DNA of 64,000 bases from Candidatus Nealsonbacteria bacterium (GTDB lineage Bacteria > Patescibacteriota > Minisyncoccia > Minisyncoccales > JANBVM01). This document shows positions 3,630 to 30,737 of the stretch, in pieces. The notes beneath the pieces were generated by a model that was not told the DNA's origin, made no database searches, and saw only the letters and a list, made by a program, of their open reading frames with translations. The first letter of the stretch is position 1. The number at the start of each line of letters is the position of its first letter. A program made the translations under genes and the position numbers. The stretch covers positions 448,776-512,775 of the forward strand of contig CP179889.1 in NCBI GenBank assembly GCA_047456315.1. The letters are read 5' to 3'.

Positions 3630-3666
3630 CTACTTAATATTACGATTGAGAGAGAGAAAGGTAACA
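3630..3666 (-). promoter_or_regulatory. ECF-type promoter GTTACC-N15-CGTAAT
   Basis: Hexamers at 3660-3665 and 3639-3644, about 49 nt upstream of the start at 3589. The 37-nt block is near-identical to 2857-2893. Confidence 0.55.
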
Positions 3667-3692
3667 AAAAAACCGCCTTTTTGGCGATTTTT
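3664..3692 (-). terminator. Intrinsic terminator
   Basis: Minus-strand ATCGCC-AAAAA-GGCGGT hairpin followed by a T7 run. Confidence 0.55.
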
Positions 3693-3694
3693 AT

Positions 3695-3712
3695 GCCTCT
3701 CGGTCTCTCGAA
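3695..3712 (-). repeat. 18-nt conserved motif ahead of a terminator, copy A (TTCGAGAGACCGAGAGGC on the minus strand)
   Basis: Plus strand GCCTCTCGGTCTCTCGAA. Related copies at 7824-7841 and 30673-30690, each immediately 5' of a terminator on the minus strand. Confidence 0.6.
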
Positions 3713-3766
3713 AGCCTCACAACTTGGCTCCCCTGGTGGGACGATGTTCGAACCTGTTTGGCTGCC

Positions 3767-3997
3767 TTATAGCTCTATTACTTTATCGCTAAACATAGAC
3801 TCTATCTTTATTTTACCTGTTCCAGAAACTACCTTTCCAATAATATCTGTATCTAACTCAGTAACAACATTATCAGCATCTTTGGAAGAAACCGACAAGA
3901 TAAAACCTATGCCACAATTAAATGTCTTATACATTTCCTCGTCAGAAACCCCTCTTTTGTATAATTCTTTAAAGATATTCTGCGGTTCTAATTTATG
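3767..3997 (-). pseudogene. purM: 3' remnant of purM (AIR synthetase); C-terminal ~76 codons only
   Basis: Minus-frame translation HKLEPQNIFKELYKRGVSDEEMYKTFNCGIGFILSVSSKDADNVVTELDTDIIGKVVSGTGKIKIESMFSDKVIEL*. The EEM.rTFNCGiGm block is the conserved PurM C-terminus. There is no upstream PurM sequence; the frame hits a stop at the end of the neighbouring gene (4002). Confidence 0.65.
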
Positions 3998-4001
3998 AGT
4001 T

Positions 4002-4744
4002 CTATTTTTTAATTAAATTAGTTGCTATTTCTAATCGTCCTTTAAAATTTTTCTGTGTACGACCTTGCCCGTAAAAACATGGAGAAACTATACATTTTTT
4101 ACCTTTAATTAAAAGGGGTCTTCCGCTTTCAACGACGGAAGCATAATCTTTATTTTGATTTAAAAGATATAATGGTTGTCTTCCTAGAAGAATAATCAAG
4201 TCTGGATTGCAAAATTCTATTTCGGCTTCTATCAACTCCTTACTCTTTTGCCTGTCAAAATTCCTATTTTTCCAAGAGCCTTCTTTATAAACCTTTGATG
4301 CGTCTGTCATATATAAAAGACCAAAGTCTATCCCCCATTCGGCTAATTGATTTCTTATTTTGTTCCAGCTATTAAACGAAAATGGCTTTTCTATATCTAA
4401 TTGATCAGTATATTCTTTATATTTATCCTTATTATTAATAACAGGCATGAGGTGGGTTAAAAGAATTATACTTCCCGCATCTTCTATAAAGAATCTTGAC
4501 CCACTATTAAAATACGAAAACCCAATTCGTCAGTGAAAAACTTTTTACCCCACCATAGTAAATCCACACCTCTTTGTGTGGGTTTATAGTCTTGATACGA
4601 AAGAAATATTTCTAAATCTTTACTGTAGTGATTCTTGGGAAACATTCTTTGAAAAACCTTTACAGGTGAACAATCATTGTAACAACTTTTGGGATATATT
4701 TTATATTTAGCAAAAAGTTGTGCTAATTCGCTGATTTTTTTCAT
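4002..4744 (-). pseudogene. Split gene, possibly UDG-superfamily-like (tentative); frameshifted
   Basis: ORFs 4484..4744 (ends ILIVGQDSL*) and 4002..4448 lie on the same strand. Both frames are open across about 4484-4520, so a single +/-1 shift would join them. The GQDS and IILLGRQP strand motifs weakly recall uracil-DNA glycosylase-like folds. Confidence 0.35.
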
Positions 4745-4759
4745 ATTTTAATTTTATTT

Positions 4760-4966
4760 TTATAAAACAAATGAAGCAGTATAAAAAGAAAGTTGATACC
4801 ATTTTTCTATTGAATAATTGCCTTTTCTGACAAACACATCAATTTTACCTTCTCGACCTGCCCAAATTTTCTTCTCTAGTTTCACCCTATATCCTAACCT
4901 CTCAAGATTTCTTTTAATTTCCTCTTGAATCTTCCGATGGTCAGTTGCCTTAACATCTAAAAGATT
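4760..4966 (-). pseudogene. Restriction-endonuclease-fold fragment (HsdR N-terminal-like), no start codon
   Basis: 68-codon open frame without ATG: NLLDVKATDHRKIQEEIKRNLERLGYRVKLEKKIWAGREGKIDVFVRKGNYSIEKW.. The pattern L..LGY...E......G.iDv......iE.K is typical of PD-(D/E)XK restriction-type domains. Confidence 0.35.
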
Positions 4967-5060
4967 TTTTATTAAAAAAATTATTTAGGTTTCAACTAAA
5001 TGCTTTATCTAAAATTACTTGCTCTCCTATTTTTTTGTTGGCCAATTAGATTTCATAAAT

Positions 5061-6008
5061 TTATACAGTAAAACTCGCCCTCCTTACACTGGGAGTATAT
5101 AGCTTGGAAAAATCTACATTAAGAAAGTTGCCCAAAGAAAACTTTTCGCCAATCTTTTCTTCTAAAAGCGTATGCCTTCTTGTGTCAATGATCGTCTTTA
5201 TCATTACATATACTAGAATACACTCCTCGTAATCTCTTTGAAAGTCAAAAGGTTTTTGGGCTCTTAAAATCCGACCCGTTGGTACCATTTTTCCTTCTCC
5301 ATTCTTCTTCTTTTGTTCTTCAAGGAAAGTAATGCAATCCTCAGAAGAACCAAGTGAGTGCATTTTCTTACTACCAGTTAAACCTATAGCTATGGCAAAA
5401 GGAGCGTTATAGAATCGCAACGAATGCTTGTAAGCGTTATATTCTCCTCTATCTGTAAAATCGTGCGCAAATATTAAAAGAAGCTTTTTAATGTTCTCCA
5501 GATTTTTCTTCCACTCCCCATCATTTAGTCTTGTTGAATAGATAAAGTAAAAAATCCATCTTAATAACGGAATTTCTATTTTCTTACCTTCTATCTCGGT
5601 TTTTATTTTCTCCGTAAAAATCTCTGAAGAATTAGTTATCTTTTCTATTCTTTTGTAAGTTTCAGAATAAAAGGGTGTATTTCTGTCATTCGAGAAAGTA
5701 AGAGCTACCCACAAATCTCTATTATCATGCTTTGATATAGCGAAAATAATTTCAAAGAGCGTTTCTATCATTTGAAAATACAAAAAATGCAATTCAGTTC
5801 GAATAGTACGCTTGAAATCCCCATCTATTGTTTCTTCCGTATTTTTTATCAAACTTGATTTAAGCTGATCAAAATCATCATGAGAGTTTTTTAAAAGCAT
5901 TATCCTGTATAGCCAATAGTCCGGATCATACATCCGATAAAATTCCTTTTGAAGATTGTCCAAATCGTTTACAGTAAAAGTCTTTAATTTTTTCTTTGGT
6001 ATGTGCAT
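5061..6008 (-). CDS. Hypothetical protein (defence-islet context)
   Basis: 315-aa ORF with no recognisable motif. N-terminus MHIPKKKLKTF echoes the repeated WPTKKL module. Confidence 0.55.
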   Translation of the reverse strand: MHIPKKKLKTFTVNDLDNLQKEFYRMYDPDYWLYRIMLLKNSHDDFDQLKSSLIKNTEETIDGDFKRTIRTELHFLYFQMIETLFEIIFAISKHDNRDLWVALTFSNDRNTPFYSETYKRIEKITNSSEIFTEKIKTEIEGKKIEIPLLRWIFYFIYSTRLNDGEWKKNLENIKKLLLIFAHDFTDRGEYNAYKHSLRFYNAPFAIAIGLTGSKKMHSLGSSEDCITFLEEQKKKNGEGKMVPTGRILRAQKPFDFQRDYEECILVYVMIKTIIDTRRHTLLEEKIGEKFSLGNFLNVDFSKLYTPSVRRASFTV

Positions 6009-6070
6009 ACTTTATAAATTTTCTCCTAATTTTTTTGTTGGGTAAATTGACTTCATAACTTTAAGATGGT

Positions 6071-7042
6071 TTATAAGACACACGCATTACATTTTCCTTC
6101 AATAATTCCTTTATACCTTGCTTTATCTATGATTTTAGTTCTTATTTTCTCGTTTAATTCCTCACTTTGTTTTGCAAGGGTTTCAGTTTCTTCATAAAAT
6201 TTCCTTATTTTTTCTATTATTTTAGGAGAATCTCGTAATTTTTTAATAAAATCCTTTGCTACAGCTTCGGATATCATGTTCCCTTGTATCACTAATCCTG
6301 CACCACCCCAAGAGAGTTCAAAGAATTCTCCGCTTCCTCCTAGCCCTCCTAATTCTGAACTTGATTTACGGACAATAGACACAGTTGCTTCTCCGCTTGG
6401 AAAGTCAGTTAAAATTTTCCTTAAAGTAAAAGTAATCATCCGTTGATAATAAGCGCACGGCGGATTATAAGAAGGGGAACAAGAAGGAAGTTTTATTTCT
6501 TTTTTAGCTCCTTCGTTGAGTTCTTTAATAAAAGTTTTAAGTTTGTCATTATATTTATTTACGGAATCTTTCCACTTTTGATATTCACTATATAAATGTG
6601 GGTAGCCACTTTTAAGGTGTTGGTTAATATAAAGAGGAGGATTTTCTATTCGATAGATATCCCAATACGCCCGCTCTTCTTGATCTGGTAAATTTCGTGG
6701 ATCGAGAATTAATCCCGAAACTTTTGTCAGCCACTTAGAAAAATTTTCTCCTAATCTCTCGCTGTGTGGTCTACTTAATTGAATTTTTTCAAATTTATAA
6801 TTTCGGTAAGCATAGTATGTAGTAATAAAAATTAAAACTATCGTTGATATTGCCTGAATTGCACCTGAATTTTTATTTAAAAAATCTATTTTCAAATAAA
6901 TAATACACCCAATTTCTACAACAATAATAAGAACTAAAATTATATCTATCCATTTCGGAATTTTGAATTGTAATTTTGCATTTTGCATTTTGATTTTTGA
7001 ATTTTCATCAAACCTCACTAATTTTTTTGTTGGCCAAGGCAT
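6071..7042 (-). CDS. Hypothetical membrane protein
   Basis: 323 aa. N-terminus MPWPTKKLVRF, two predicted TM helices (IDIILVLIIVVEIGCIIYL, AISTIVLIFITTYYAY), coiled-coil C-terminus. Confidence 0.55.
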   Translation of the reverse strand: MPWPTKKLVRFDENSKIKMQNAKLQFKIPKWIDIILVLIIVVEIGCIIYLKIDFLNKNSGAIQAISTIVLIFITTYYAYRNYKFEKIQLSRPHSERLGENFSKWLTKVSGLILDPRNLPDQEERAYWDIYRIENPPLYINQHLKSGYPHLYSEYQKWKDSVNKYNDKLKTFIKELNEGAKKEIKLPSCSPSYNPPCAYYQRMITFTLRKILTDFPSGEATVSIVRKSSSELGGLGGSGEFFELSWGGAGLVIQGNMISEAVAKDFIKKLRDSPKIIEKIRKFYEETETLAKQSEELNEKIRTKIIDKARYKGIIEGKCNACVL

Positions 7043-7168
7043 AATGTTATTTTCTTAAGAATTTCTTTATTTTCTTTCTTAATCGGCTTAATTCCTCAAA
7101 TTCTCGTTTATGTAATTTGCTTTGTTTGTTAACTAACCAAATAAATAGACTTTACCCCACCCCGCTAC

Positions 7169-7765
7169 TCACTGTTTTTTCTCTGCTAAGCGTATATATT
7201 TAATAAGTCTAAAACCATCAATTAGTTCAATAGGCTTATCTTCTGTAAATTGCTTAGCTTCAAGCGTAAATTTGTTTGTGGTTATAAAGTATCCTTTACC
7301 ATCAGCTAAATGGTCAGCAATAGCTCCGTAAAACTCTCTTAGTGCCACTACGCCAACCTTTGAGCTAGTATATTTCTTACATTGAATATAATGTTTGATG
7401 CCGTCTTTTTCGGCAATCACATCAATTCCGCCATTGATGTGAGCACCAGTCACTTTTGTTTTGTATCCGAGCCTTGAAAATAAATCAGCAATATATTGCT
7501 CAAATTCCCCAAAATTCATTCCTTGCAGCCAATGCAATAATTCTCTATCAGAACGCCACCGCTTGCCTTTCTTAAATTTTGCTTTTTTCCAAAAAGTACT
7601 ACCAACAAAGATAATTATAACAACAGCGGCTCCGTATGTAACCCAGTGCCAAAAATTAGCCCTATCTGTAAACCACAGAAGAAGTACATAGATAATATAA
7701 AAAATGCCCAACCTCCACAAAGTATCAAGAACAATATCGCTTAATGAATTTTTTCTTCTTGCCAT
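7169..7765 (-). CDS. Membrane-anchored Mrr-like restriction endonuclease domain protein
   Basis: 198 aa with two N-terminal TM helices. FEQYIADLFSRLGYKTKVTG...GGIDVIAEKDG..HYIQCKKY matches the Mrr_cat D-(D/E)xK core. Confidence 0.7.
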   Translation of the reverse strand: MARRKNSLSDIVLDTLWRLGIFYIIYVLLLWFTDRANFWHWVTYGAAVVIIIFVGSTFWKKAKFKKGKRWRSDRELLHWLQGMNFGEFEQYIADLFSRLGYKTKVTGAHINGGIDVIAEKDGIKHYIQCKKYTSSKVGVVALREFYGAIADHLADGKGYFITTNKFTLEAKQFTEDKPIELIDGFRLIKYIRLAEKKQ

Positions 7766-7794
7766 ATAATTTTTAGTATCACTATTATTCTACC

Positions 7795-7822
7795 AAAAAA
7801 CCGCCTAATTGGCGATTTTTTG
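7795..7822 (-). terminator. Intrinsic terminator downstream of tRNA-Gln
   Basis: Minus-strand AATCGCC-AATTA-GGCGGTT hairpin plus a T run. Close sequence relative of the 3664-3692 terminator. Confidence 0.55.
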
Positions 7823-7823
7823 T

Positions 7824-7841
7824 GCCTCTCGGTCACTCGAA
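7824..7841 (-). repeat. 18-nt conserved motif, copy B
   Basis: Plus strand GCCTCTCGGTCACTCGAA. Lies 16-33 nt 3' of tRNA-Gln on the minus strand and directly 5' of the terminator. Confidence 0.6.
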
Positions 7842-7856
7842 CTGCGCTCAACGATG

Positions 7857-7927
7857 CTGCGGGGCTAGGATTCGAACCTAGATCGAGCACTTCAAAGGCG
7901 CTTGTCCTACCATTAGACGACCCCGCA
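7857..7927 (-). tRNA. tRNA-Gln (anticodon TTG)
   Basis: Hand-folded cloverleaf: acceptor TGCGGGG/CCCCGCA, D arm GTCTAATGGTAGGAC, anticodon stem AGCGC/GTGCT with loop CTTTGAA, T arm CTAGG-TTCGAAT-CCTAG. No encoded CCA. Confidence 0.9.
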
Positions 7928-7934
7928 ATGCGTT

Positions 7935-9059
7935 TTAAACGTTTAAAAACTCTACCACCTCTACTACTGCCAATTCCAAAGGCAACTGTGGTATTGAAGC
8001 ATATCTTATCTTATTTTGAGCTTCAAGAAAAGTGCTTAAAATTTTTCTTAAATCTTCTTGCTCAAACAATGACATTTGCTTTTTAAGCACAACTATTTCT
8101 TCCTTTGTCAAACCAGTCAAATAATCTTCTGAACTCACAGGATTCCCCTCCCCCATTATTTTCAAAATCAATCCTTTTCTCAAATAATTAATCAAACTTT
8201 TAGAAAATTCTTCTAAATCCAAACCCTTCTCACTAACTTCATTTAAATAATGAATAGCTTCAAAAGTTTTTTTATTACTCAAAAAACCAGTAAATTTACT
8301 GACCATTTCAATTTCCACCAATCCTAATAAATCCTTAATATCTTCAGCTTTAATTTCATTTTTAGAACCATCATAAAGAATTGCAACCTGATTTAACAAA
8401 CCTTCAGCATCTCTCATAGCGCCTGAAGAATTTAAAGCAATTAATTCCAGAGCTGGTTCTCCAATCTTAATGTTTTCTTTTTTTGAAAGAATCAACAATC
8501 TTTTAATAATTTCAGGTAAAGTGGATTTTCTAAAATCAAACCTCTGGCATCTTGAAATGATTGTTGAAATCATTTTATGAATCTCTGTTGTAGCTAAAAC
8601 AAAAATAGCATGAGCTGGAGGCTCTTCCAGTGTTTTTAAAAGCGCATTAGCTGCTTCTTTAGTTAATTGATGAGATTCATCAATTATAAATACTTTGTAC
8701 TTTGATTTTGTTGGAGAAAACCTAATTCCGTCTTTTAACTCCCTTATATCATCAATTCCCCTATGGGATGCTGCATCAATTTCAATTAAATCCATTGCCT
8801 GTCCTTTCACAATTTCATTACAAGAAGAGCACTTGTTGCAGGGTTCAAATTGTCCTTGCTTTCTGTTTTCACAATTAACAGCCTTAGCCAACAAACGAGC
8901 TATTGTTGTTTTTCCTGTTCCTTTTGGCCCGGAAAACAAATAAGCATGAGAAACCGTTTCAGAAGAAATTGCATTAGTTAATGTTTTAACAACATGTTGC
9001 TGGCCAATAATTTCAGCAAAGGTCTGAGGACGATATTTACGATATAAAACGAGAGTCAT
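7935..9059 (-). CDS. dnaX: DNA polymerase III subunit gamma/tau (short form)
   Basis: 374 aa. YRPQTFAEIIGQ, Walker A GPKGTGKTT, zinc module CNKCSSC, DExH-like IIDESHQL, SRC sensor ISRCQRF. Confidence 0.9.
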   Translation of the reverse strand: MTLVLYRKYRPQTFAEIIGQQHVVKTLTNAISSETVSHAYLFSGPKGTGKTTIARLLAKAVNCENRKQGQFEPCNKCSSCNEIVKGQAMDLIEIDAASHRGIDDIRELKDGIRFSPTKSKYKVFIIDESHQLTKEAANALLKTLEEPPAHAIFVLATTEIHKMISTIISRCQRFDFRKSTLPEIIKRLLILSKKENIKIGEPALELIALNSSGAMRDAEGLLNQVAILYDGSKNEIKAEDIKDLLGLVEIEMVSKFTGFLSNKKTFEAIHYLNEVSEKGLDLEEFSKSLINYLRKGLILKIMGEGNPVSSEDYLTGLTKEEIVVLKKQMSLFEQEDLRKILSTFLEAQNKIRYASIPQLPLELAVVEVVEFLNV

Positions 9060-9766: not shown

Positions 9767-10663
9767 TTAATACGTATATAGTAAGTTAAATTTCTCTAAT
9801 TCTTTAGCCCGAGTTCGTAATGTCACTTCAGTTACACCATTAGCTTTGGCTATCTCTTTCTGGGTTTTCTTTTCTCCATTATTTTTGCAGAGGAGATATA
9901 AAAGGCCTGCTATTAATCCTTTTACACTTTTACCCGAAAAATCTTCTTTTATCTCAGTAAATATCTTTAAGGTTAGTTTTTGAGTTTTTATAGAAATGCC
10001 AGTAGTTTCTGAAACAGTGGAGATGTATTTTGCCAAGTTTTGAGACTGCTTCTTTTGTTCAAATATTTTAATTAAATTTGCATACTCTCTAAAAATAGAT
10101 TTCAGTCTGATTTGAGTGAGCTTTGAAATCTCTTTTATTGGATTTGGATTTCCTTCTTTTTTATAGAGAAAGCAAAAAGCAGCTGCCCCCAACACTCTAA
10201 AACTTTTACCACGAGCATCAACTTTTTTCAGAACTTTTGTAAAAAATAACTTAAGTTCTTTTTTAAACACATTTGTGATTCTAAATTCGGGTGAAATTTG
10301 ACGTAAAACTTGATTAAGTTCTATTATTGCAGCTTGTAGTCTCCTTTCTTCATTATCTTTAAAACCACTATACTTTCGTAATCTTCCCATTGTGGACCGC
10401 GTTATGGAAGGAATTTCATTTCCTGAAGAATCAAGGTTTTTACGATCTATATAGCTTCCTAGGTTTCCATAGTGGGTTATGGTTCTTACAGGATATTCTG
10501 GACCATGGCCTTTTTGTTTTATACCTCCCTTTAAATCTATTTCTTTGTATGAGACCACAAGACCGCATCTTGGACAAACGGTTTGGGCTTCTTTTTCCTG
10601 TAAAATTAGATTTTTATTTTCGCATTCTGGACATATTTCAGTAAAATCAATCATTTGCATCAC
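9767..10663 (-). CDS. Transcription factor B / TFIIB-like protein (archaeal-type), full length
   Basis: 298 aa. N-terminal Zn ribbon CPECENKNLILQEKEAQTVCPRCGLVV; linker MGRLRKY; cyclin repeat 1 ARGKSFRVLGAAAFCFLYKKEGNPNPIKEIS; cyclin repeat 2 with HTH FSGKSVKGLIAGLLYLLCKNNGEKKTQKEIAKANGVTEVTLRTRAKELEK. Collinear with archaeal TFB along its whole length, judged from the Pyrococcus TFB sequence as I recall it. Confidence 0.8.
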   Translation of the reverse strand: MMQMIDFTEICPECENKNLILQEKEAQTVCPRCGLVVSYKEIDLKGGIKQKGHGPEYPVRTITHYGNLGSYIDRKNLDSSGNEIPSITRSTMGRLRKYSGFKDNEERRLQAAIIELNQVLRQISPEFRITNVFKKELKLFFTKVLKKVDARGKSFRVLGAAAFCFLYKKEGNPNPIKEISKLTQIRLKSIFREYANLIKIFEQKKQSQNLAKYISTVSETTGISIKTQKLTLKIFTEIKEDFSGKSVKGLIAGLLYLLCKNNGEKKTQKEIAKANGVTEVTLRTRAKELEKFNLLYTY

Positions 10664-10775: not shown

Positions 10776-12182
10776 ATGTTAAAATTATACAACACATTAA
10801 CTCGTAAAAAAGAAGCTTTTAAGCCCTTTAAAAAAGGAAGGGCTGGGCTTTATACTTGCGGCATCACAGCTTATTGGTTTCCACACATTGGAAATTTAAG
10901 AACCTATCTTTTTGAAGACATTTTAAAAAGAGTTCTCAATTACAACAAGTATAAAGTAAAACACGTAATGAATATTACTGATGTAGGTCATTTAACTTCT
11001 GATGCTGATACAGGGGAGGATAAAATGATAAAAGCTTTAAAAAGAGAAGGAAAAAAAATGAACGAAAAATCAATACTTGAAATCGCTGATTTTTACACAA
11101 AAGCTTTTAAAAAAGATTTAAAAAACTTGAATATTATAGAACCAGATATCTGGTGCAAGGCAACAAAACACATCAAAGAGCAGATTGACATGATTAAAAA
11201 GCTTTTGAAAAACGGTTATGCTTATGAAACAGAAGAAGCAGTATATTTTGACACTTTAAAGTTTAAAGATTACGCAAAATTGGCAAAGTTAAATTTAAAA
11301 GGATTAAAAGAAGGCGCAAGAGCTGAAAAAAGAACAAATAAAAAAAATCCAACAGATTTTGCTTTGTGGTTGAAGCTTGTTGGAGAGCACAAAAATCACA
11401 TTATGAACTGGGATTCTCCTTGGAGCAAGGGTTTTCCAGGCTGGCATATTGAATGTTCAGCAATGAGTATAAAATATTTAGGAAAAGAATTTGATATTCA
11501 CTGCGGAGGAATTGACCATATTCCTATCCATCACACCAATGAAAGAGCTCAGAATATTGGCGCATACAATCATCCAGTAGTAAAAATATGGCTTCATGGA
11601 GAGTTTTTAATTTTAAAAAAAGGCAAAATGGCAAAATCAGAAGGAAACATTGTTATCTTAGATGAGTTAATTAAAAAAGGGTTTGACCCCCTTGCCTATC
11701 GTTACTTAACTCTTAATGCCCATTATCGTTCAAAACTTACTTTTTCCTGGAAAATCTTAGAGTCAGCCCAGAATGCGCTGGAGAATTTATATGAAAAAGT
11801 AAGAGAATTAAAGAAAAACAAAGGTAAAAAATCAAACAAGAAAAAATTTAATAAGTACAAGAATAAATTCCTGGAATATATAAATGACGATTTAAATATT
11901 CCTAATGCATTAGCCCTAACTTGGAACTTAATTAAGGATAAAGATTTATCAAACAAAGATAAATACAGGCTTTTACTTGATTCTGATAAAGTTTTTGGCT
12001 TAGAACTAGATAAAGTAAAAGAAATAAGAATTCCTCAAAAAGTAAAAGATTTAGTTAAAAAAAGAGAAGAATTTAGAAAAAAAGATGATTGGAAAAAATC
12101 TGATGAATTAAGAAAACAAATTGAAGATATGGGATATAAGATTGAGGATACTGAAAAAGGACCAAAACTAAAAAAACTTTAA
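10776..12182 (+). CDS. cysS: Cysteine--tRNA ligase
   Basis: 468 aa. Class I HIGH variant (FPHIGNLRTY), GWHIECSAM zinc site, KMAKSEGN (KMSKS). Confidence 0.92.
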   Translation: MLKLYNTLTRKKEAFKPFKKGRAGLYTCGITAYWFPHIGNLRTYLFEDILKRVLNYNKYKVKHVMNITDVGHLTSDADTGEDKMIKALKREGKKMNEKSILEIADFYTKAFKKDLKNLNIIEPDIWCKATKHIKEQIDMIKKLLKNGYAYETEEAVYFDTLKFKDYAKLAKLNLKGLKEGARAEKRTNKKNPTDFALWLKLVGEHKNHIMNWDSPWSKGFPGWHIECSAMSIKYLGKEFDIHCGGIDHIPIHHTNERAQNIGAYNHPVVKIWLHGEFLILKKGKMAKSEGNIVILDELIKKGFDPLAYRYLTLNAHYRSKLTFSWKILESAQNALENLYEKVRELKKNKGKKSNKKKFNKYKNKFLEYINDDLNIPNALALTWNLIKDKDLSNKDKYRLLLDSDKVFGLELDKVKEIRIPQKVKDLVKKREEFRKKDDWKKSDELRKQIEDMGYKIEDTEKGPKLKKL

Positions 12183-13402
12183 CTTTCTTCCATCACTTTT
12201 TCCACCCATTCCAAAATGTCTTTGGTTAGTAATTTCTTAAAAGTATTTTCTAAAAAAAAGCCATTATTTTTCTTATGAGATTTGTATTTTCGACAAACTT
12301 TATAAAAATCTAAAATCTGGTTTGTAATAGTTTGCCAGGAATATTGTTTTACTTCTTCAATCCCCTTACTCGAAACTTTCTCTCTTAAGCCAGGGTTTTT
12401 AATTAAAATCTCTATTTTTTTAGCAAGTGATTTGTAATCCTTTGGTTTTGTTAAGAATCTTCCTGAAGACTTATTTTTTAAAACCTCTCTATACCCTTGA
12501 TTAGCAAATGCAACAACCGGTGCTCCGCAGGCCATTGCTTCTAAAAGCACTAATCCAAAACTTTCTCTATAAAGTGCAGGGCTGATAAAAACATCAGCTG
12601 TTCTATAATAAGGAGCAATACTTCCTTTTACCCTGCCTTCAAAAATCACTTCTTTAAGCTTATTATTTTTAACATACTTCTTGCATTCCGACTCTAAAGG
12701 ACCATCACCCACTATAATTAACCTTAAATTTAAAAACCTCTTATTTAAAATCTTAAAAGCTTTTAAAAGATAAATTAAACCTTTTCTTTCCTCAATTCTT
12801 CCAACAAATAAAAGATTGATTTTGCCATCGCAATATTTCTTTATTTTTGAAACATTGATGTTAAACTTATCTAGATCTATGCCATTGGAAATAACTTTTT
12901 TAGGTCCTTTGTAAGGTTTGAAATAATTCATAATCAAAGGAGCAACACCTATTACTCCATCTATTTTCCACTGACAGACTTTATTTAAAAGATACAAAAA
13001 ACCAGGGAAATTTTTTAAAACACCGCTGCCTTCCATATTAGAATGAAAGGTTAAAACATTTAAAGTATTTGAAGCTGAAGGGCTGATTAAAATCTGCAAG
13101 ATTGAAGGAAAGCCAAAATTATGAAGGTGTAAAACATTAAACTTTTCTCTTTTTAAAGTTCTTTCAATGGATATTGGATTAAAATTAATATCAAGATCAG
13201 CCTGGGTTCCGCTAAAATCAATTGGAAAAGAAGTGCCCAAAAGAATTACATCCTTGCCGTAATTCTCTGACTTTTTTCTTCTTGGAACAATGATTTTTAT
13301 TTTATGCCCTTTTTCCCTAAGATTTTTTGACAAATCCAGAATATGTCTTTTTACTCCGCCTGGCTGAGAAAAAGTATGAAAAGTGATTAATCCTATCTTC
13401 AT
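12179..13402 (-). CDS. Glycosyltransferase family 4
   Basis: 407 aa. GGVKRHILDL N-terminal motif and ESFGLVLLEAMACGAPVVAF C-terminal motif. Its stop codon overlaps the cysS stop (convergent TTAA). Confidence 0.8.
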   Translation of the reverse strand: MKIGLITFHTFSQPGGVKRHILDLSKNLREKGHKIKIIVPRRKKSENYGKDVILLGTSFPIDFSGTQADLDINFNPISIERTLKREKFNVLHLHNFGFPSILQILISPSASNTLNVLTFHSNMEGSGVLKNFPGFLYLLNKVCQWKIDGVIGVAPLIMNYFKPYKGPKKVISNGIDLDKFNINVSKIKKYCDGKINLLFVGRIEERKGLIYLLKAFKILNKRFLNLRLIIVGDGPLESECKKYVKNNKLKEVIFEGRVKGSIAPYYRTADVFISPALYRESFGLVLLEAMACGAPVVAFANQGYREVLKNKSSGRFLTKPKDYKSLAKKIEILIKNPGLREKVSSKGIEEVKQYSWQTITNQILDFYKVCRKYKSHKKNNGFFLENTFKKLLTKDILEWVEKVMEES

Positions 13403-13482
13403 AATTTAAAATTGTTTTAATAAAAGATTTTATCAAGAAAGCCAGATTCTTGCCAATTAGCTCTTCTCATGTTAAAAATTAA

Positions 13483-16122
13483 GTGAATATGGTTAATCAA
13501 CTACCAAACAAATTACCTCCTCAATCTATTGAAGCTGAGCAATCAGTATTGGGCTGCTTAATGATCGACAAGGCAACAATTATTAGGATTGCTGATTTTT
13601 TAAAACCAGAAGATTTTTACAAAAAAAGCCATCAGGAAATCTACAAGGTTTGTTTAAAGCTTTTTGAAAAAGATGAAGCAATTGATTTTTTAGCTGTCTC
13701 AAATAAATTAAAGGAAAAAGGTGTTTTTGAAGAAATTGGCGGAAACGCATATCTTACTGAGCTGATAAATACTGTTCCTACTCCAGTCAATGCTTTTAAC
13801 TACGCCAAAATAGTTTCCAAGAAAAGGGTTTTAAGGGATTTAATTGATGCCTCTTATGAAATAGGCCAGCTAGGATATGAAGAAGAAGAAGAGACAGATA
13901 CTCTTTTGGATAGAGCTGAAAGGAAAATATTCAGCATTGCCCAAAAAAGTTTATCCCAGGATTTTATACTAGTTAAAGATGACTTAGAAGAAGCGTTTGA
14001 AAGAATTGACCAATTATCAAAGCACAAAGGAGGATTAAGGGGTCTTGCCAGCGGGCTTCCTGATTTAGACAATATTTTAGCTGGTTTTCAAAAATCCGAT
14101 TTATTAATTTTAGCTGCCAGACCCAGTTTGGGAAAATCGGCGTTAGCTCTAAACTTTGCATACAATATTGCAGTTAACCAGAAAATTCCAGTTGGTATAT
14201 TTTCTTTAGAAATGTCAAAAGACCAGGTAATTGACAGGTTGATTTCAAGCATTTCTGGGGTGGACTTATGGCGACTAAGAACTGGCAGATTATCAAGCGA
14301 AGGTGAAGACAATGACTTTACGAGAATCCAGCAATCACTGGCAGTTTTATCAGATGCTCCAATCTATATTCACGACTCATTATGCTCTAATGTTTTGCAG
14401 ATGAAAGCAATGTCCAGACGACTTCAATCTAAAAAAGGGCTGGGCTTAATTATAATTGACTACTTGCAACTTATGGAACCAATGGATATAAAGGCCAATC
14501 CAGTTCAACAGGTATCTGAGAACTCACGTGCTCTAAAATCATTAGCCCGAGAGTTAAATATTCCTGTTTTAGTTGTATCACAATTATCTCGAGCGGTTGA
14601 ACAGCGCTCTCCTCAAATTCCAAGATTAGCTGATTTAAGACAATCAGGATGTTTAACCGGAGATACTCTGATTTCAAGAGCAGATAGCGGGGAACAAATT
14701 CCCATAAAAGAATTAGTGGGCAAAAGCGATATTCCAATATTTGCATTAGGACACGATTACAAATTACATATTAGAAAAATGACAAAAGTATTTTATTCTG
14801 GCAAAAAAATGGTATACGAGTTAAAAACAAGAAGTGGCAGAAAAATAAAGGCTTCTGCCAACCATCCGTTTTGGAAAACGAGCGGTTGGACACGACTTGA
14901 CGAGCTTAAAGTTGGCGACTGCATTGCCACACCTAAAGAATTAAAAATCAGTGCTGCCAAAAATGAACTATTAAGAGAGGAAATTATCCTTTTAGCTCAC
15001 CTTTTGGGTGATGGTTGCATCTTGCCGCGTCAACCCTATCACTACACCAATACCGACCAAGAAAATATTAAAGTTGTGGCTGAAACCGCTGCTAAGCTGT
15101 TTGGTATTAAACCTAAAATTGTAAAACAAAAAAACTGGTGGCATGTTTATTTAACCAGTCCTCGTCGTTTAACTCATGGGAAATATCATCCCATCACTGA
15201 ATGGTATAAATCATTAGAAATCAAAAGGGTTCGCTCTTGGGAGAAAAAGATTCCTCAAAAAGTATTCTCTTTGGACAACGAGCATTTAGCCTTATTTCTG
15301 AAGCATCTTTGGGCAACTGATGGAAGTATCACCTTAAAACCATTACGAAACAAAAAAACCCAATGCAGTATCTACTATTCAAGCACAAGCCATCAGCTGG
15401 CTGTGGGGGTCAAACATTTATTGTTAAGATTTGGTATTAGAAGTAAAATTTCCGAAAAAAGAAAAGAAAATTATCGAATTTGTTATACCGTCTCTATTTA
15501 TGGAAAAGAGCATCAGCTAAACTTTTTTGAAAAAATTGGATGTTTTGGCAAAAGAGGCAGAATTATACCGCAATTAATTGAAAAATTAAATAAAACAAAA
15601 TCAAACACCATTCTTGATGTTTGGCCCAAAGAAACTTGGCAATTTATTATCAATCCACTAAGGAAAGAGCAAGGCATATCTTGGCGCGATTTCAGCGCTG
15701 GTATTAATACCACTTATTACGGAACTGCTCTTTTAAAACATGGAATTGGAATGGAACGGATGCAAAAAATTGCTCAATATTTGCAATCATCACTTATTGT
15801 CAATATGGCGCAAGCTAATATTTTTTGGGACGAAATTGTTTCCATAAAACCCTTATGTGTGCAAAAAGTTTATGACGCTACAGTGGCAGGGCTGCACAAT
15901 TTTGTTGCTAACGGAATCATTGTCGAAAATTCAATTGAACAGGATGCGGACGTAGTTATGTTTATTTACAAAGAAGATAGGTACAGGCCTGAAACCTCAC
16001 GAAAAAATATTGCTGATTTAATTATTGCTAAGCACCGTAATGGTCCTGTTGGAAGAGTTGAATTATATTTTGATGAAGGAAGAGTGAGCTTTAGAAGCCT
16101 GGAAAAAACCTTTGAAGAGTAA
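13483..16122 (+). CDS. dnaB: Replicative DNA helicase DnaB interrupted by an intein
   Basis: 879 aa. N-terminal PPQSIEAEQSVLGC, Walker A ARPSLGKSALALN, IIIDYLQLM, extein resumes at SIEQDADVV..IAKHRNGP. GTG at 13483 or ATG at 13489 as start. Confidence 0.92.
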   Translation: MNMVNQLPNKLPPQSIEAEQSVLGCLMIDKATIIRIADFLKPEDFYKKSHQEIYKVCLKLFEKDEAIDFLAVSNKLKEKGVFEEIGGNAYLTELINTVPTPVNAFNYAKIVSKKRVLRDLIDASYEIGQLGYEEEEETDTLLDRAERKIFSIAQKSLSQDFILVKDDLEEAFERIDQLSKHKGGLRGLASGLPDLDNILAGFQKSDLLILAARPSLGKSALALNFAYNIAVNQKIPVGIFSLEMSKDQVIDRLISSISGVDLWRLRTGRLSSEGEDNDFTRIQQSLAVLSDAPIYIHDSLCSNVLQMKAMSRRLQSKKGLGLIIIDYLQLMEPMDIKANPVQQVSENSRALKSLARELNIPVLVVSQLSRAVEQRSPQIPRLADLRQSGCLTGDTLISRADSGEQIPIKELVGKSDIPIFALGHDYKLHIRKMTKVFYSGKKMVYELKTRSGRKIKASANHPFWKTSGWTRLDELKVGDCIATPKELKISAAKNELLREEIILLAHLLGDGCILPRQPYHYTNTDQENIKVVAETAAKLFGIKPKIVKQKNWWHVYLTSPRRLTHGKYHPITEWYKSLEIKRVRSWEKKIPQKVFSLDNEHLALFLKHLWATDGSITLKPLRNKKTQCSIYYSSTSHQLAVGVKHLLLRFGIRSKISEKRKENYRICYTVSIYGKEHQLNFFEKIGCFGKRGRIIPQLIEKLNKTKSNTILDVWPKETWQFIINPLRKEQGISWRDFSAGINTTYYGTALLKHGIGMERMQKIAQYLQSSLIVNMAQANIFWDEIVSIKPLCVQKVYDATVAGLHNFVANGIIVENSIEQDADVVMFIYKEDRYRPETSRKNIADLIIAKHRNGPVGRVELYFDEGRVSFRSLEKTFEE
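14650..15930 (+). mobile_element. DnaB intein with LAGLIDADG homing-endonuclease domain (427 aa)
   Basis: Starts at Cys (CLTGDTLIS) right after ..DLRQSG. Block B SANHPF. LAGLIDADG-type motifs LLAHLLGDGCI and FLKHLWATDGSI. Ends HNFVANGIIVEN followed by +1 Ser (SIEQD). Removal leaves a 452-aa DnaB. Confidence 0.88.
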
Positions 16123-16125
16123 ATT

Positions 16126-16728
16126 ATGAACTATCCGCCAAGCATTCAAAAATTAATTGATTTGTTTTCTAAATTCCCTACAGTCGGGCCAAAGACAGCT
16201 GCCCGTTTTGTTTTTTATCTTTTGAAATCTGATAAAAAAGCAGTTGATGAATTAATATTTTCTATTTCTAATTTAAAAAGAAACATTAAGACCTGTTCTT
16301 CATGCTTTAATTCTTTTGAATCAAACTCAAAAGAGCTCTGTGAAATCTGCTCTGATGCTTCAAGAGATAAAAACCAGCTCTGCATTGTTGAAAAAGAAAC
16401 TGATTTAAAAACTTTGGAAAAGATTAAAAAATACAAAGGAAGATATTTCAATTTGGGAGGAGAAATTTCACCTTTAAAAAAGCAAAAGAATAAAGAATTA
16501 AGAATCAAAGAACTCAAAAAAACAATAAAACAAAATCCTGAAATTAAAGAAATTATACTTGCCACAAACTCAACTTCTGAAGGAGAAGCAACGGCCCTTT
16601 ATTTAGAGAGAGAATTAAAAGAGTTTAATAAAAAAATCACTCGTTTGGCTCGAGGATTACCTGTTGGAAGTGAATTAGAATATGCTGACGAGGAAACTCT
16701 TAAAAGCGCTTTAGAGGAAAGGAAATAG
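16126..16728 (+). CDS. recR: Recombination protein RecR
   Basis: 200 aa. LIDLFSKFPTVGPKTAARFVFYLL HhH motif, C4 zinc finger (CSSC..CEIC), Toprim ATNSTSEGEATALY. Confidence 0.9.
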   Translation: MNYPPSIQKLIDLFSKFPTVGPKTAARFVFYLLKSDKKAVDELIFSISNLKRNIKTCSSCFNSFESNSKELCEICSDASRDKNQLCIVEKETDLKTLEKIKKYKGRYFNLGGEISPLKKQKNKELRIKELKKTIKQNPEIKEIILATNSTSEGEATALYLERELKEFNKKITRLARGLPVGSELEYADEETLKSALEERK

Positions 16729-16741
16729 CTATATTTCTATC

Positions 16742-17041
16742 TTAAAGTATCTCTACCTCAGTAAAGGGCTGTCTGTGCCCTTTTTTCACCTTATAGCGCT
16801 TGCTTGCTCTATATTTAAAAATAATAACTTTTTTATTCTTCCCCTGTTTTAATATTTTTCCAATAACTTTTGCTTGTTTAAGAAAAGGCTCTCCAATCTC
16901 TATCTTTTTCCCCTTTTCCAATAACAAAACTTCTTTAAAGGTTATTTCACTCCCCTCTTTTTTATCAATTTTCTCAATCTTTATTTTGTCTCCTGGCGAA
17001 ACAATATATTGTTTACCTCCTGTTTTTATTACTGCTAACAT
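16742..17041 (-). CDS. rplU: 50S ribosomal protein L21
   Basis: 99 aa. MLAVIKTGGKQYIVSPGDKIKIEK and HRQPFTEVEI are classic L21. Confidence 0.92.
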   Translation of the reverse strand: MLAVIKTGGKQYIVSPGDKIKIEKIDKKEGSEITFKEVLLLEKGKKIEIGEPFLKQAKVIGKILKQGKNKKVIIFKYRASKRYKVKKGHRQPFTEVEIL

Positions 17042-17042
17042 A

Positions 17043-18038
17043 TTAATCTTCTAATTGTTTAGTTTCTTTTATTTCTAATAATTTTTCAACTCTGTCTGAA
17101 AATAAGTTTAATCTTTTTTCAGAATTATCATAAGAAGAAGTTGCGTTTTTCAAATGACTACCGAGTTTCCTGAAATCATTCATCAGCTTAACAGCGTCCT
17201 GATTGATCCTGTTTAATCTTTTTAAAATCTCCTGGGTTTGTTTTGAAATCTGGGTGTCTTTAAACCACTGTTCAAACGCTCTTAAAGTCAGATAAATCGT
17301 ATTTGGAGAAGTTAAAACTATTTTCTTCTTCCATGCATAATTAGCAATCCCCTGCTCCCCTAGATTGAACATTATTTCGTAATAAATTGCCTCTGCTGGA
17401 ATATACATCAGAGCAAAATCAACTGTTCCTTCAGATGGTAAAATATATTTAGAGCTGATTTCATCAATCCTTAATTTTAAATCTTTTAAAAAGGTCTGTT
17501 GATAGCGCTTTTTCTCATCTTCTGAATTAGTATAAACCATTCTCTCAAAATTGTCTGAAGAAAACTTTGAATCTATTGGCAGCAATTTATTATTAGGAAG
17601 TTTTAACACTGCATCAACCTGCTCTCCAGAAGAAAAAGAATGCTGGCTTTCCCACAATTCAGCAGGATAGTGCTGGGTTAAAATATAGTTTAAGGAAGCT
17701 TCTCCCCATTGACCTCTTAGCTTTGGTGATTTAAAAATATCCTGAAAAGAAGAAATATTTTCTATTTTTTGATGAATTTGTTTTAAATCCTCTTGAAGAT
17801 GAGTGGTTTCTTTTGTAAACATCCTTATTTGATTATGAAGATTTTGAGAAGCTCCACTCTGGCTCTGTCTAATTTCTTTCATCTGGTTTGTCACTAAACT
17901 AGTCAAGCGGATCTCTAAATCTCTAATCGCACTGTTTTGACCCTCGTCAACATTTGATTTTTTAATATAAAGAAAAATAGCTCCTGCCCAGCCAATGAAA
18001 GCTAAAAAAATCGCGAAAATTAAAAAAGGGTCAATCAT
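17043..18038 (-). CDS. rmuC: DNA recombination protein RmuC
   Basis: 331 aa. N-terminal TM helix, coiled coil, and C-terminal nuclease-like core DFALMYIPAEAIYYE...LTSPNTIYLTLR. Confidence 0.75.
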   Translation of the reverse strand: MIDPFLIFAIFLAFIGWAGAIFLYIKKSNVDEGQNSAIRDLEIRLTSLVTNQMKEIRQSQSGASQNLHNQIRMFTKETTHLQEDLKQIHQKIENISSFQDIFKSPKLRGQWGEASLNYILTQHYPAELWESQHSFSSGEQVDAVLKLPNNKLLPIDSKFSSDNFERMVYTNSEDEKKRYQQTFLKDLKLRIDEISSKYILPSEGTVDFALMYIPAEAIYYEIMFNLGEQGIANYAWKKKIVLTSPNTIYLTLRAFEQWFKDTQISKQTQEILKRLNRINQDAVKLMNDFRKLGSHLKNATSSYDNSEKRLNLFSDRVEKLLEIKETKQLED

Positions 18039-18095
18039 TATATGTATAATTTAACCCATTGAAAGCCTTAAGTCAATAAGAAACTGAAAATGTTT

Positions 18096-19049
18096 TTATC
18101 TGAAATAAAGCTCAGCAATAATAAAAAGCACATAAATCCCAAGCAAAAACAAAGCTTCTATTGCAGTGACTTTTCGTTCACTTCTTACAAACTTTATAAA
18201 GAACAAGCAGGCAATTAAAGTAAAGACAGCTCCTATCAAATAAGGTGAAAAATCAGTAATTGTAAATGGTGAAATCATTCCAACAAGACCCAAAACCAAG
18301 GTAGCATTAATAACAATTGAGCCCATTATATCTCCAAGAATCATTGTTTTGTGGCCCATTCTAATTGCCTTTATTTCAAAAGCTATCTCGGGAAGAGAGG
18401 TTCCCAGAGCTACCAAAGATACTCCGATAACCATTAATGATAAGTTAAAAGTCTCAGCTAATTTTGAAGCTGAAAAAACAATTCCTTCAGCGCTTAGTAA
18501 AAGCATAGCGGCGGCAGCTAAAAAAATAAACATATCTTTTACAAATATTTTAAAATGATGCCATCCTTTAAACCGATTGTTAAACACTTTTCTGAATCTT
18601 TCTTCTTTAGCTATCAGTTGAACAAAATAAAAAACCAAAGCCGCCAATAAGATCATGCCGTCTTTTTTGGAAAACATACCGTCAAGTATTAATAATAAAG
18701 GCAAAAGACTGGAAAGCGCAGCATATAAAGCAGATTTTTGTAAAATCTTTCCCTTGATATATAAATTTTTACCAAGCAGGGCACCAAGCGCCACCATCAC
18801 AGTAAGAGCAACAATATTAGAACCAATAATAACTCCGAAAGGAAGTTCGGGTTTTCCAGAAATAGCTGATGTGATTCCGACAAAAAGCTCAGGCAAAGAA
18901 GTTGCAAAAGCCATTAAAAAAGAAGCTACTATAAATTCTCTTAATTTTAGAAACTGGGCAATTCTAATAAGAGCTTTAACCACCCACATCCCAGAGCGAA
19001 CTAAAATATAAGAAGAAACAATAAATATAAGAATATATATCCAGGACAT
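18096..19049 (-). CDS. Ca2+/Na+ antiporter (CaCA/YrbG family)
   Basis: 317 aa polytopic protein with two alpha-repeat motifs: ATSLPELFVGI and GTSLPEIAFEI. Confidence 0.8.
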   Translation of the reverse strand: MSWIYILIFIVSSYILVRSGMWVVKALIRIAQFLKLREFIVASFLMAFATSLPELFVGITSAISGKPELPFGVIIGSNIVALTVMVALGALLGKNLYIKGKILQKSALYAALSSLLPLLLILDGMFSKKDGMILLAALVFYFVQLIAKEERFRKVFNNRFKGWHHFKIFVKDMFIFLAAAAMLLLSAEGIVFSASKLAETFNLSLMVIGVSLVALGTSLPEIAFEIKAIRMGHKTMILGDIMGSIVINATLVLGLVGMISPFTITDFSPYLIGAVFTLIACLFFIKFVRSERKVTAIEALFLLGIYVLFIIAELYFR

Positions 19050-30548: not shown

Positions 30549-30647
30549 TTCTTCTTCTTTAAAATAGATTATTTTATTTTTTTTATAGAGATAATTTATC
30601 TACTTTCAAAATAACCTCTTTTTTGAGAAAGTGCAAGACAAAATTAA

Positions 30648-30668
30648 AAACCCGAAATATCGGGTTAA
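30648..30668 (-). terminator. Intrinsic terminator
   Basis: Minus-strand AACCCGATATTTCGGGTT hairpin followed by TTTTT. Confidence 0.55.
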
Positions 30669-30672
30669 TAAT

Positions 30673-30690
30673 GCATCTCGGTCTCTCGAA
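30673..30690 (-). repeat. 18-nt conserved motif, copy C
   Basis: Plus strand GCATCTCGGTCTCTCGAA. Here it pairs with the adjacent CCGAG to form a CTCGGT/ACCGAG hairpin. Confidence 0.6.
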
Positions 30691-30703
30691 CCGAGCACTA
30701 ACC

Positions 30704-30727
30704 TGCTCCAGCGACAGGACTCGAACC
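30704..30727 (-). other. Orphan tRNA 3'-end-like fragment (T loop plus acceptor 3' strand)
   Basis: Minus strand GGTTCGAGTCCTGTCGCTGGAGCA resembles T-loop/T-stem/acceptor/discriminator. No matching 5' half (TCCAGCG) upstream. Confidence 0.45.
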
Positions 30728-30737
30728 AATAACAATA

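Follow-up and report, generated by a model that had tools for sequence, protein, structure and literature searches.

The interval between positions 3664 and 7855 of a 64,000-nucleotide (nt) stretch of Candidatus Nealsonbacteria DNA (Candidate Phyla Radiation, CPR/Patescibacteria), hereafter the window and part of a contig of 647,540 bp, was investigated as a possible defence islet beside a tRNA-Gln gene; all islet coordinates are window positions. Every feature of the islet is on the minus strand, downstream of dnaX (7935-9059) and tRNA-Gln(UUG). In the direction of transcription the order is tRNA-Gln, its trailer, a gene for an Mrr-family nuclease, a gene for a 323-amino acid (aa) protein, a 14-codon hsdS stub, a gene for a 315-aa protein, a 9-codon hsdS stub, a nuclease gene fragment, a pseudogene related to uracil-DNA glycosylase (UDG), the tail of purM and a second copy of the trailer motif and terminator. 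An earlier account made from the letters alone (the sequence-only reading) had listed the tRNA-Gln gene, the Mrr gene, two unrecognisable proteins, the stubs, the fragment, the purM tail and the flanking blocks, and these were recovered almost point by point.

The Mrr nuclease and its pairing with the 315-aa gene

The islet proteins were compared with Pfam, NCBIfam, PHROG, PADLOC (PADLOC-DB v2.0.0) and PDB sequences. The gene following the tRNA-Gln trailer (7169..7765, minus strand) encodes a membrane-anchored Mrr-family PD-(D/E)xK nuclease of 198 aa, identified by Pfam, PADLOC, alignment and hydropathy. The protein matched Mrr_cat (PF04471) over residues 81-190 with an E-value of 2.9e-28 and the PADLOC model mREase_IV with 4e-15, and hydropathy placed two hydrophobic helices at its N-terminus. 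The PD-(D/E)xK core with the D...(E/Q)xK motif that characterizes the Mrr family is present as an intact D115...Q128-x-K130, and D115, Q128 and K130 were invariant in the homologue alignment. The assignment given in the sequence-only reading, a membrane-anchored Mrr-like nuclease, therefore stands with one correction: the protein is C-terminally shorter than its closest relatives and does not have their Top1-type zinc ribbon.

In five metagenome loci (L111, L113, L115, L116 and L123; L numbers denote the loci compared) the Mrr homologue was the gene directly upstream of a homologue of the 315-aa protein, and the called open reading frames (ORFs) of the two overlapped. When the junctions in L113 and L116 were read, the Mrr stop preceded the probable start of the 315-aa homologue by 2-3 nt. 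The paired Mrr homologues were 46-54% identical to that of the window, had the same N-terminal anchor and carried a C-terminal Top1-type zinc ribbon. The blastn breakpoints against L113 and L116 delimited a ~1.2-kb segment (5985..7210, minus strand) which replaces the zinc-ribbon/junction region of the putative ancestral pair of zinc-ribboned Mrr (Mrr-Znf) and 315-aa genes; ~190 nt encoding the zinc ribbon and the junction are replaced in the window. The segment carries the 323-aa gene and is bounded by repeats resembling the start of hsdS (7002-7033/5968-5999 and 6029-6063/5029-5063). The repeats at 5029-5063 and 6029-6063 are direct repeats of 35 nt, 83% identical and exactly 1000 nt apart; the two unrecognised genes each have one such repeat at the 3' end, and each repeat contains an hsdS start codon region. 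The pairing in five loci, together with the breakpoints in the window, thus indicates that the Mrr and 315-aa genes belong together and that the 323-aa gene is a later insertion that truncated the Mrr gene.

The 315-aa protein family

The 315-aa protein is encoded by an intact ORF (5061..6008, minus strand) that exactly matches NCBI protein ACKKMW_02530. It belongs to a widespread, uncharacterised family: a word-indexed search returned 137 matches, and an exhaustive profile search gave 433 clusters at 50% identity. The distribution is patchy across Patescibacteria, Elusimicrobiota (Elusimicrobiales), Thermodesulfobacteriota and Methanobacterium, and no member was found in IMG/VR, PLSDB plasmids or INPHARED phages. 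The sequence-only reading had called this protein and the 323-aa protein unrecognisable, and indeed the 315-aa protein had no match in Pfam, NCBIfam, PHROG, PADLOC or PDB sequences. A PDB profile search with the family returned nothing at E ≤ 10, and 54 members compared individually with Pfam gave noise only.

The protein has the signature E82...Y190-N191-x2-K194-H195-x2-R198...R277. Across the broad family only K194 and H195 were invariant, with E82, Y190, N191, R198 and R277 conserved at ≥90%; judged from the alignment, these residues would form an enzyme-like constellation. The AlphaFold2 model was confident (pLDDT 91.5, pTM 0.89); its N-terminal part is helical, and it has a β-sheet and, at the C-terminus, a long helix. 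Searches of the structure libraries PDB and BFVD with this model returned no match. Assignment as a HEPN protein was considered, as R67-x6-H74 is present in close homologues, but the broad family does not conserve the R-x6-H motif and the assignment was therefore dropped; the 54 members gave no HEPN match in Pfam, nor was there a fold match.

Comparison of its copies showed that the 315-aa gene moves as a cassette. Together with ~16 nt on each side (5051-6024) it was 97% identical in L009, where the flanking genes (DUF4153 and YceG) are unrelated to the islet. The downstream boundary always consists of TAA, 4 nt and the ATG of the next gene. What stands there varies: L097 has a full hsdS, the window, L107 and L108 have an hsdS stub, L119 has a HEPN-like gene, and in L009 a small membrane protein is encoded.

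Many homologues are located in or beside restriction-modification (R-M) loci. In L097 the order is RadC-HsdM-252aa-[298-aa homologue]-HsdS-NYN-HsdR, so that the homologue is nested in a type I operon. The Methanobacterium loci L006-8 have type I R-M beside an integrase, L001 has type III R-M with DUF2254, Ymh and UvrD, and L012 has a type IIG methylase. L096 reads nSTAND3-[315 homologue]-MerR-HEPN_AbiV-serine recombinase. Among 150 neighbour ORFs, located ≤2 genes from 57 metagenomic homologues, the commonest domains were Mrr_cat, Zn_ribbon_Top1, N6_Mtase, Eco57I, Methylase_S, HSDR_N, SLFN_AlbA_2 and DUF2779. In ~10 clusters the 315-family domain is fused N-terminally to long TPR arrays, including TPR-S, an architecture which by analogy is that of a sensor with a putative effector head.

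Two further observations were made on the neighbours of this family. A second recurrent upstream partner was present in L005, L012, L114 and L118 as 242-aa ORFs with 2-3 N-terminal transmembrane (TM) helices and a C-terminal domain containing GHGTSH...HCGT; the stop of this ORF overlaps the start of the 315-aa homologue. Genes flanking the homologues in L119 (3462-4067) and L097 (7240-7998) have R-N-x3-H motifs (RNAAAH and RNAFFH), typical of HEPN RNases; neither gene matched a Pfam family.

The 323-aa protein

The second unrecognised gene (6071..7042, minus strand) is likewise an intact ORF and exactly matches NCBI protein ACKKMW_02535. Its probable true start is M19 at 6988, as in the NCBI annotation, which corrects the start given in the sequence-only reading. 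The protein combines two TM helices with a soluble domain that is helical and ends, at the C-terminus, in GKCxAC, and no match was obtained in Pfam, NCBIfam, PHROG, PADLOC or PDB sequences. Its model was mediocre (pLDDT 71) and had no match in the PDB. The family is small, with 8 matches. One homologue, P0124 (327 aa), lies between hsdM and hsdS in L010/11, in the order HsdM-PBECR3-[327aa]-265aa-HsdS. The 265-aa gene beside it is not a member of the 315-aa family, and none of the upstream partners found elsewhere (of 367, 242 and 252 aa) is related to the 323-aa protein.

Both families thus have homologues inside a defence system of several genes that is already known. According to published work, genes located within type I R-M operons frequently prove to be defence systems, TgvAB being an example (PMC11411939), and "guilt by embedding" has led to seven validated systems and 145 candidates (Payne et al., 2024; bioRxiv 10.1101/2024.01.29.577857). 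The sequence-only reading had proposed the two proteins as defence candidates, and the position of both families between hsdM and hsdS, with mostly R-M and nuclease domains among the neighbours of the 315-aa family, supports that proposal.

Decayed genes of the islet

The remaining coding sequences of the islet, all on the minus strand, are relics. The first hsdS 5' stub (5027..5056) has 9 codons (MKSNWPTKK, then stop) with a frameshift in an A-run, and its decayed continuation reads IGEQVILDKAFS. The second (6012..6056) has 14 codons (MKSIYPTKKLGENL, then stop) and was identified by a DNA match to the hsdS start. The mini-ORFs had earlier been likened to the N-terminus of type I specificity subunits, and they proved to be real hsdS 5' ends by their match to the full hsdS of L097: the stub at 5056 (ATGAAATCTAATTGGCCAACAAAAAAA) is almost the same as the start of the gene that follows the 315-aa homologue there (MKTNWPTKKLGE...). 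The two target-recognition domains (PF01420) and coiled coils that define HsdS are missing, leaving N-terminal stubs only, and no hsdM, hsdR or full hsdS is present in the islet.

A start-less remnant at 4760..4966 (GKIDVFVRKGN..IEKW) represents a small PD-(D/E)xK-like nuclease. At this position L107 encodes a 218-aa nuclease whose D...ExK region (ADIVLRKGN..IEVK) is similar, and with NCBIfam the remnant gave only a YraN-like match with an E-value of 0.01. The earlier description as a start-less nuclease-fold fragment was borne out by homology to a truncated ORF located after the 315-aa homologue in L012/L013 (74% over 35 aa). By these comparisons the fragment travels with the 315-aa gene.

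At 4002..4744 lies the frameshifted pseudogene of a ~250-aa putative UDG-superfamily protein (GQDSL|EDAGS...), recognized by homologue alignment. The sequence-only reading had described a split, possibly UDG-like gene; a single frameshift near 4470-4486 accounts for the split, and after repair the 246-aa product can be aligned along its whole length (100%) with intact ~250-aa Patescibacteria proteins at up to 73% identity. With PF03167 of the UDG superfamily, the C-terminal fragment gave 19.9 bits (E = 8e-4), under the Pfam cut-off of 24.3, PF03167 is precomputed in 5 of 72 homologues, and the GQDSL..ED sequence resembles motif A. Intact homologues adjoin DUF2779, HNH, AbiU2 and SocA genes, and the gene is, on its predicted homology, a pseudogene of a defence-context family.

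The last relic (3767..4000) is a purM 3' remnant of the C-terminal ~75 codons, which matched the final ~55 residues of PurM (TIGR00878, 4e-11, profile positions 271-326 of 332; AIRS_C weak). This remnant had been taken as a truncated housekeeping gene at the border of the islet. It lies inside the flanking repeats and is therefore cargo or debris rather than a border gene. Purine-pathway genes were also seen near 315-family members, namely purM-like AIRS/AIRS_C in L094 (4313-5416) and AICARFT/IMPCHase in 2 of the 150 neighbours; their occurrence there and in the islet is possibly a coincidence.

The tRNA-Gln junction in related genomes

The tRNA-Gln(UUG) gene (7856..7927, minus strand) was identified by ARAGORN and by Rfam (tRNA, 62 bits). 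One genome per species was scanned with DnaX, which resulted in 80 related loci covering ±10 kb around dnaX; tRNAs were scanned in 27 of these, and in 27/27 the tRNA-Gln is directly downstream of dnaX, which makes it a core gene. Its native trailer (7792..7855, minus strand) consists of a 14-nt spacer, a 19-nt motif (TTCGAGTGACCGAGAGGCA, 7823-7841) and a terminator-like hairpin with a T-run (7792-7820).

The upstream block cysS-(TFIIB-like)-GtrA-dnaX is kept in most of the 80 related loci, and in none of them is an islet protein encoded within 10 kb of dnaX. In the two closest relatives (L014 and L015), dnaX is 84-87% identical to that of the window; the DNA is ~85% identical from 14000 down to 7827, and nothing is common beyond this point. 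The cargo after tRNA-Gln is different in every relative. It comprises HAD hydrolases, a dCMP deaminase and NUDIX in L015, pyruvate kinase and others in L014, and a different helicase/nuclease island directly after tRNA-Gln (11585-19709) in L021, the complete genome CP179888.1. The locus nearest to an empty site was L049, where tRNA-Gln is followed by ~600 nt and then by homologues of the window's p245 and chagasin-like genes. Since the relatives share the junction but no islet gene, and since the cargo varies, the islet is lineage-specific cargo and the site downstream of dnaX-tRNA-Gln is a hotspot. Core synteny, which would have refuted the sequence-only reading, is excluded by the absence of the islet at dnaX-tRNA-Gln in ~80 relatives.

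The L021 island encodes a 1191-aa helicase-like protein, a PD-(D/E)xK-like protein and a PIF1/RecD-like helicase; at 19798-19868 of L021 there is a 71-nt remnant of the window's nuclease fragment, 89% identical. L086 has, in addition to tRNA-Gln(UUG) (11113-11184), a second tRNA-Gln(CUG) (15482-15553) located 4.3 kb downstream in the same orientation, and the sequence upstream of this second tRNA is common with that of the window's tRNA-Gln.

A repeated module at the islet borders

The blocks at 3664-3712 and 7792-7841 are ~90% identical, in agreement with the related terminator and 18-nt motif blocks noted earlier. The 18-mer of these blocks occurs 3 times in the window, with 0 occurrences expected by chance, and the third copy of the block is at 30640-30690. 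Each copy is preceded, on the minus strand, by sequence resembling a tRNA T-loop and acceptor 3' strand; a true tRNA is present only at the 7.8 kb copy. The left border is thus an orphan module (3664..3760, minus strand), a direct repeat of the tRNA-Gln trailer made of a tRNA 3'-like fragment, the motif and a hairpin. Its parts are the T-loop-like GGTTCGAACATCGTCC, then CACCAGGGGAGCCA, the 19-nt motif at 3694-3712 and the terminator-like hairpin at 3664-3692, and the tRNA 3'-like piece ends in GCCA. Between the two flanking copies, the trailer is ~90% identical and the tRNA part weakly similar. The left remnant was not detected as a tRNA by ARAGORN with relaxed thresholds or by Rfam at E ≤ 1, and the module matched no Rfam family. 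A likeness of the remnant to signal recognition particle RNA was considered and dropped because Rfam gave no match.

In relatives the module is located directly after tRNA-Gln (L015, L034, L060 and L072), where it consists of the tRNA 3' end, ~10 nt and the near-invariant core TCGAGAGACCGAG. This core of 13 nt is almost invariant, and the module has a conserved small hairpin, UCG[AGAGAC]CGA, followed by T-rich sequence. Orphan copies are also present 0.5-5 kb downstream, always in the same orientation, and often bracket a single gene. Between tRNA-Gln and the orphan module there is a membrane protein gene in L038 (11099-12240), a HIT protein gene in L051 (5563-6180), a 188-aa ORF in L064 (11852-12790) and a GIY-YIG gene in L027 (11583-12045). 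In L028 (2246-4100) a methyltransferase and a membrane protein are found with two tRNA-3'-fragment/core units in tandem, which gives the region the appearance of a cassette array. A T-loop variant that is 5 nt longer (CAAACAGGTTCGAACATCGTCC) is shared by the window's left copy, L028, L051 and L038, and the cargo genes differ among them. The repeats are consistent with insertion or recombination having taken place repeatedly at the 3' end of tRNA-Gln; a recombinase acting on the module core is not encoded in the islet.

A structured RNA was considered and not supported. RNAalifold gave only 3 invariant pairs, the covariation of a 10-pair hairpin was not significant (29/500 shuffles reached the observed score) and folding z-scores were mostly above -2. 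With its almost invariant core and with flanks that show no significant covariation, the module resembles a DNA site bound by a protein more than it does a structured RNA. A virus with such a site (attP) was also sought: six exact 16-mer matches were obtained in IMG/VR and taken as chance because all were in GC-rich coding sequence without a tRNA.

The third copy in the window (30640-30737, minus strand) is likewise an orphan, with a tRNA 3' fragment, TTCGAGAGACCGAGATGCA and a terminator, and is located 23 kb from tRNA-Gln, directly downstream of a ClpB/ClpC-like 852-aa gene.

Origin and possible function of the islet

We consider it probable that 3664-7855 is a variable defence islet at a tRNA-Gln hotspot, assembled piecemeal from circulating cassettes. 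The 315-aa cassette that is 97% identical elsewhere, the split Mrr and 315-aa pair, the travelling nuclease fragment and the UDG-like pseudogene show that the islet is a mosaic of separately mobile pieces and not one element. The cassettes would move between Patescibacteria and other lineages that are uncultivated, located for the most part within or next to R-M operons. The core would be a two-gene module of a membrane-anchored Mrr nuclease, elsewhere zinc-ribboned, followed by the ~300-aa protein. A 1.2-kb insertion would then have split this module, removed the zinc ribbon and brought in the 2-TM protein, which elsewhere is found within type I R-M operons, with the two hsdS starts, the nuclease fragment, the UDG-like gene and the purM tail presumably remaining downstream as relics. 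In function, the Mrr domain may act at the membrane and cut invading DNA that is probably modified, the 315-aa protein may be a sensor or regulator of Mrr or a second effector, and the 323-aa membrane protein may be an independent R-M-embedded cassette. The unmatched confident fold, the coupling to Mrr, the embedding in R-M operons and the TPR fusions together make the 315-aa family a good defence candidate. Recent acquisition or retained function is supported only by the three ORFs that are intact, of which one has a nearly identical copy elsewhere.

Several observations weigh against this explanation. No PADLOC model matches the 315-aa or the 323-aa protein, and both are defence candidates. 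Some contexts of the 315-aa family are not defence-like, as in L009 (DUF4153, YceG) and L094 (purM, thyX, glnA, dnaA), and its upstream partners are not conserved family-wide. The Mrr and 315-aa pair is split here and the Mrr gene truncated; with the pair disrupted and most neighbours pseudogenes, the locus in this genome may be partly or wholly inactive. The frameshifts, in turn, could be errors in the assembly of a metagenome-assembled genome. At the level of the site, a relative with a clean empty site was not found among the related loci, L049 being the nearest, and the GC profile shows no composition step across the islet, with 0.27-0.37 inside and 0.29-0.40 outside; the composition break expected at the borders in the sequence-only reading is thus missing in GC.

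The sequence-only reading had explained the locus as a tRNA-associated integrated element that had lost its integrase and was eroding. The variable insertion-type region, the repeats and the decay on which it was built were confirmed; the single element was not. Under this model one tRNA-targeting integrative element would have entered the 3' end of tRNA-Gln, copied that end as attL/attR and eroded there after losing its integrase. Repeats of ~50-100 nt in direct orientation do flank the islet, and the left one does start with a tRNA 3'-like piece ending in GCCA. The islet also has a tRNA neighbour with a tRNA 3' direct repeat at its far border, it is absent from the same site in relatives, and all of its genes are on one strand. 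However, no recombinase domain or remnant was found in any ORF or fragment of 3664-7855, be it of an integrase or of an excisionase, the base composition is not deviant, and conservation within the repeat is highest in the trailer motif and terminator rather than in the tRNA 3' end. The content is composite, with a 97% identical cassette and an insertion inside the Mrr and 315-aa pair. Elsewhere the same module brackets non-defence, housekeeping-type genes (methyltransferase, HIT, membrane protein, GIY-YIG) or, in L015, a short gene run (HAD, dCMP deaminase, NUDIX), and a third orphan module lies 23 kb away behind the clpB-like gene. We regard a single decayed element as improbable, and since integrase and composition break are both missing, the islet should not be filed as a classical integrated island. 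That the tRNA 3' fragment with its TCGAGAGACCGAG core is itself a recombination site of an integron-like, trans-acting cassette system, with the islet as one or more captured cassettes, would account for relatives in which tRNA-Gln, one gene and an orphan module follow each other (two in tandem in L028), for the near-invariant 13-nt core with flanks lacking significant covariation, and for the longer T-loop variant behind different cargo in four genomes. No recombinase was identified, the relatives being sampled at ±10 kb around dnaX, and the UCG[AGAGAC]CGA hairpin with its T-rich stretch could be a lineage-typical terminator or processing signal; as an explanation of the islet, this one seems unlikely.

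It is equally doubtful that the 315-aa and 323-aa proteins are accessory or regulatory R-M factors (restriction alleviation, specificity control, assembly) left over from a deleted type I operon. The position of both families between hsdM and hsdS, the hsdS stubs on both sides of the 315-aa gene and the lack of hsdM, hsdR and full hsdS in the islet would be expected in that case. Yet the 315-aa family also occurs with type III, type IIG, Mrr only, nSTAND and TPR fusions, and alone, which argues against a role tied to type I enzymes, and both ORFs are intact amid pseudogenes, with the 315-aa gene 97% identical elsewhere, which suggests recent transfer and selection. Beyond the piecemeal defence islet that we prefer, a bolder combined proposal is offered tentatively, as a possibility that we do not expect to hold in full: the membrane-anchored Mrr-Znf and the ~300-aa protein with the K-H motif would together make up a new anti-phage system of two genes, the second component having a new fold, and the module would be an integron-like cassette site. 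If so, this second component would also work as a stand-alone cassette in R-M operons and as the effector head of TPR sensors, and the cassette site would explain cassette swapping in genome-reduced CPR bacteria without integrases inside the cassettes.

Relation to known systems

Like other tRNA-side defence hotspots, the islet is a short variable interval among core genes, with nuclease/R-M genes, pseudogenes and direct repeats. It differs in its size of 4 kb, in having no integrase and no composition break, and in its CPR host with a ~0.65-Mb genome; of its genes, only Mrr is recognized by defence databases. With R-M-embedded defence genes (TgvAB of Vibrio cholerae VPI-2, PrrC, PADLOC HEC/PDC) it shares the location of homologues of both unrecognised proteins between hsdM and hsdS, and in the window the 315-aa gene still has an hsdS start stub on either side; in contrast, no sequence or structural similarity to TgvAB, GmrSD, PrrC or PADLOC models was found, and the operon itself is gone here. 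The nuclease has the Mrr_cat PD-(D/E)xK domain with the intact D...QxK of Mrr/type IV endonucleases, but N-terminal TM helices in place of the winged-helix DNA-binding domain; its relatives carry the Top1-type zinc ribbon and pair with the 315-aa family, and a dependence on modification is presumed. The ~10 clusters with TPR arrays hold the 315 domain in the usual effector position of TPR-sensor/effector fusions (STAND/Avs-like logic), whereas these fusions have no NTPase domain and the window protein stands alone. The module, finally, resembles integron attC and tRNA-targeting elements in that a repeated ~75-nt site brackets single-gene cargo in tandem after a fixed anchor; it differs in being a tRNA 3'-end copy with a 13-nt core, with no integrase found and no covarying attC-like hairpin.

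Overall, the islet is an ordinary small defence hotspot beside a tRNA, with useful new candidate genes. New in it are two uncharacterised R-M-associated families, one of them widespread and, by its predicted model, without a detectable structural relative; a recurrent gene pair of Mrr-Znf and 315; and a tRNA-Gln-linked module that brackets variable cargo across Nealsonbacteria. The genomes of CPR/Patescibacteria are tiny, with few defence systems recognised other than R-M, and tools developed on cultured bacteria therefore miss most of their immune repertoire. In the 315-aa family there is a concrete candidate for a new component of defence that can be cloned, and the tRNA-Gln repeat module provides a testable handle on cassette movement in these organisms.

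Other features of the window

Two loci outside the islet were recorded. At 9767-10663 (minus strand) the window encodes a TFIIB-like protein in a bacterial (CPR) genome, with Pfam matches to the TFIIB repeat (2.9e-13) and zinc ribbon (4e-9). The gene is located between cysS and a GtrA-like gene and has the same place in several relatives, with three tandem copies in L016. At 34043-35854 (minus strand) a methyltransferase-like gene (MTS, weak N6_Mtase/Eco57I) lies beside a gene with ATP-cone, Mrr_cat and AF1548-like_C domains, and this pair may be a second restriction-type locus.

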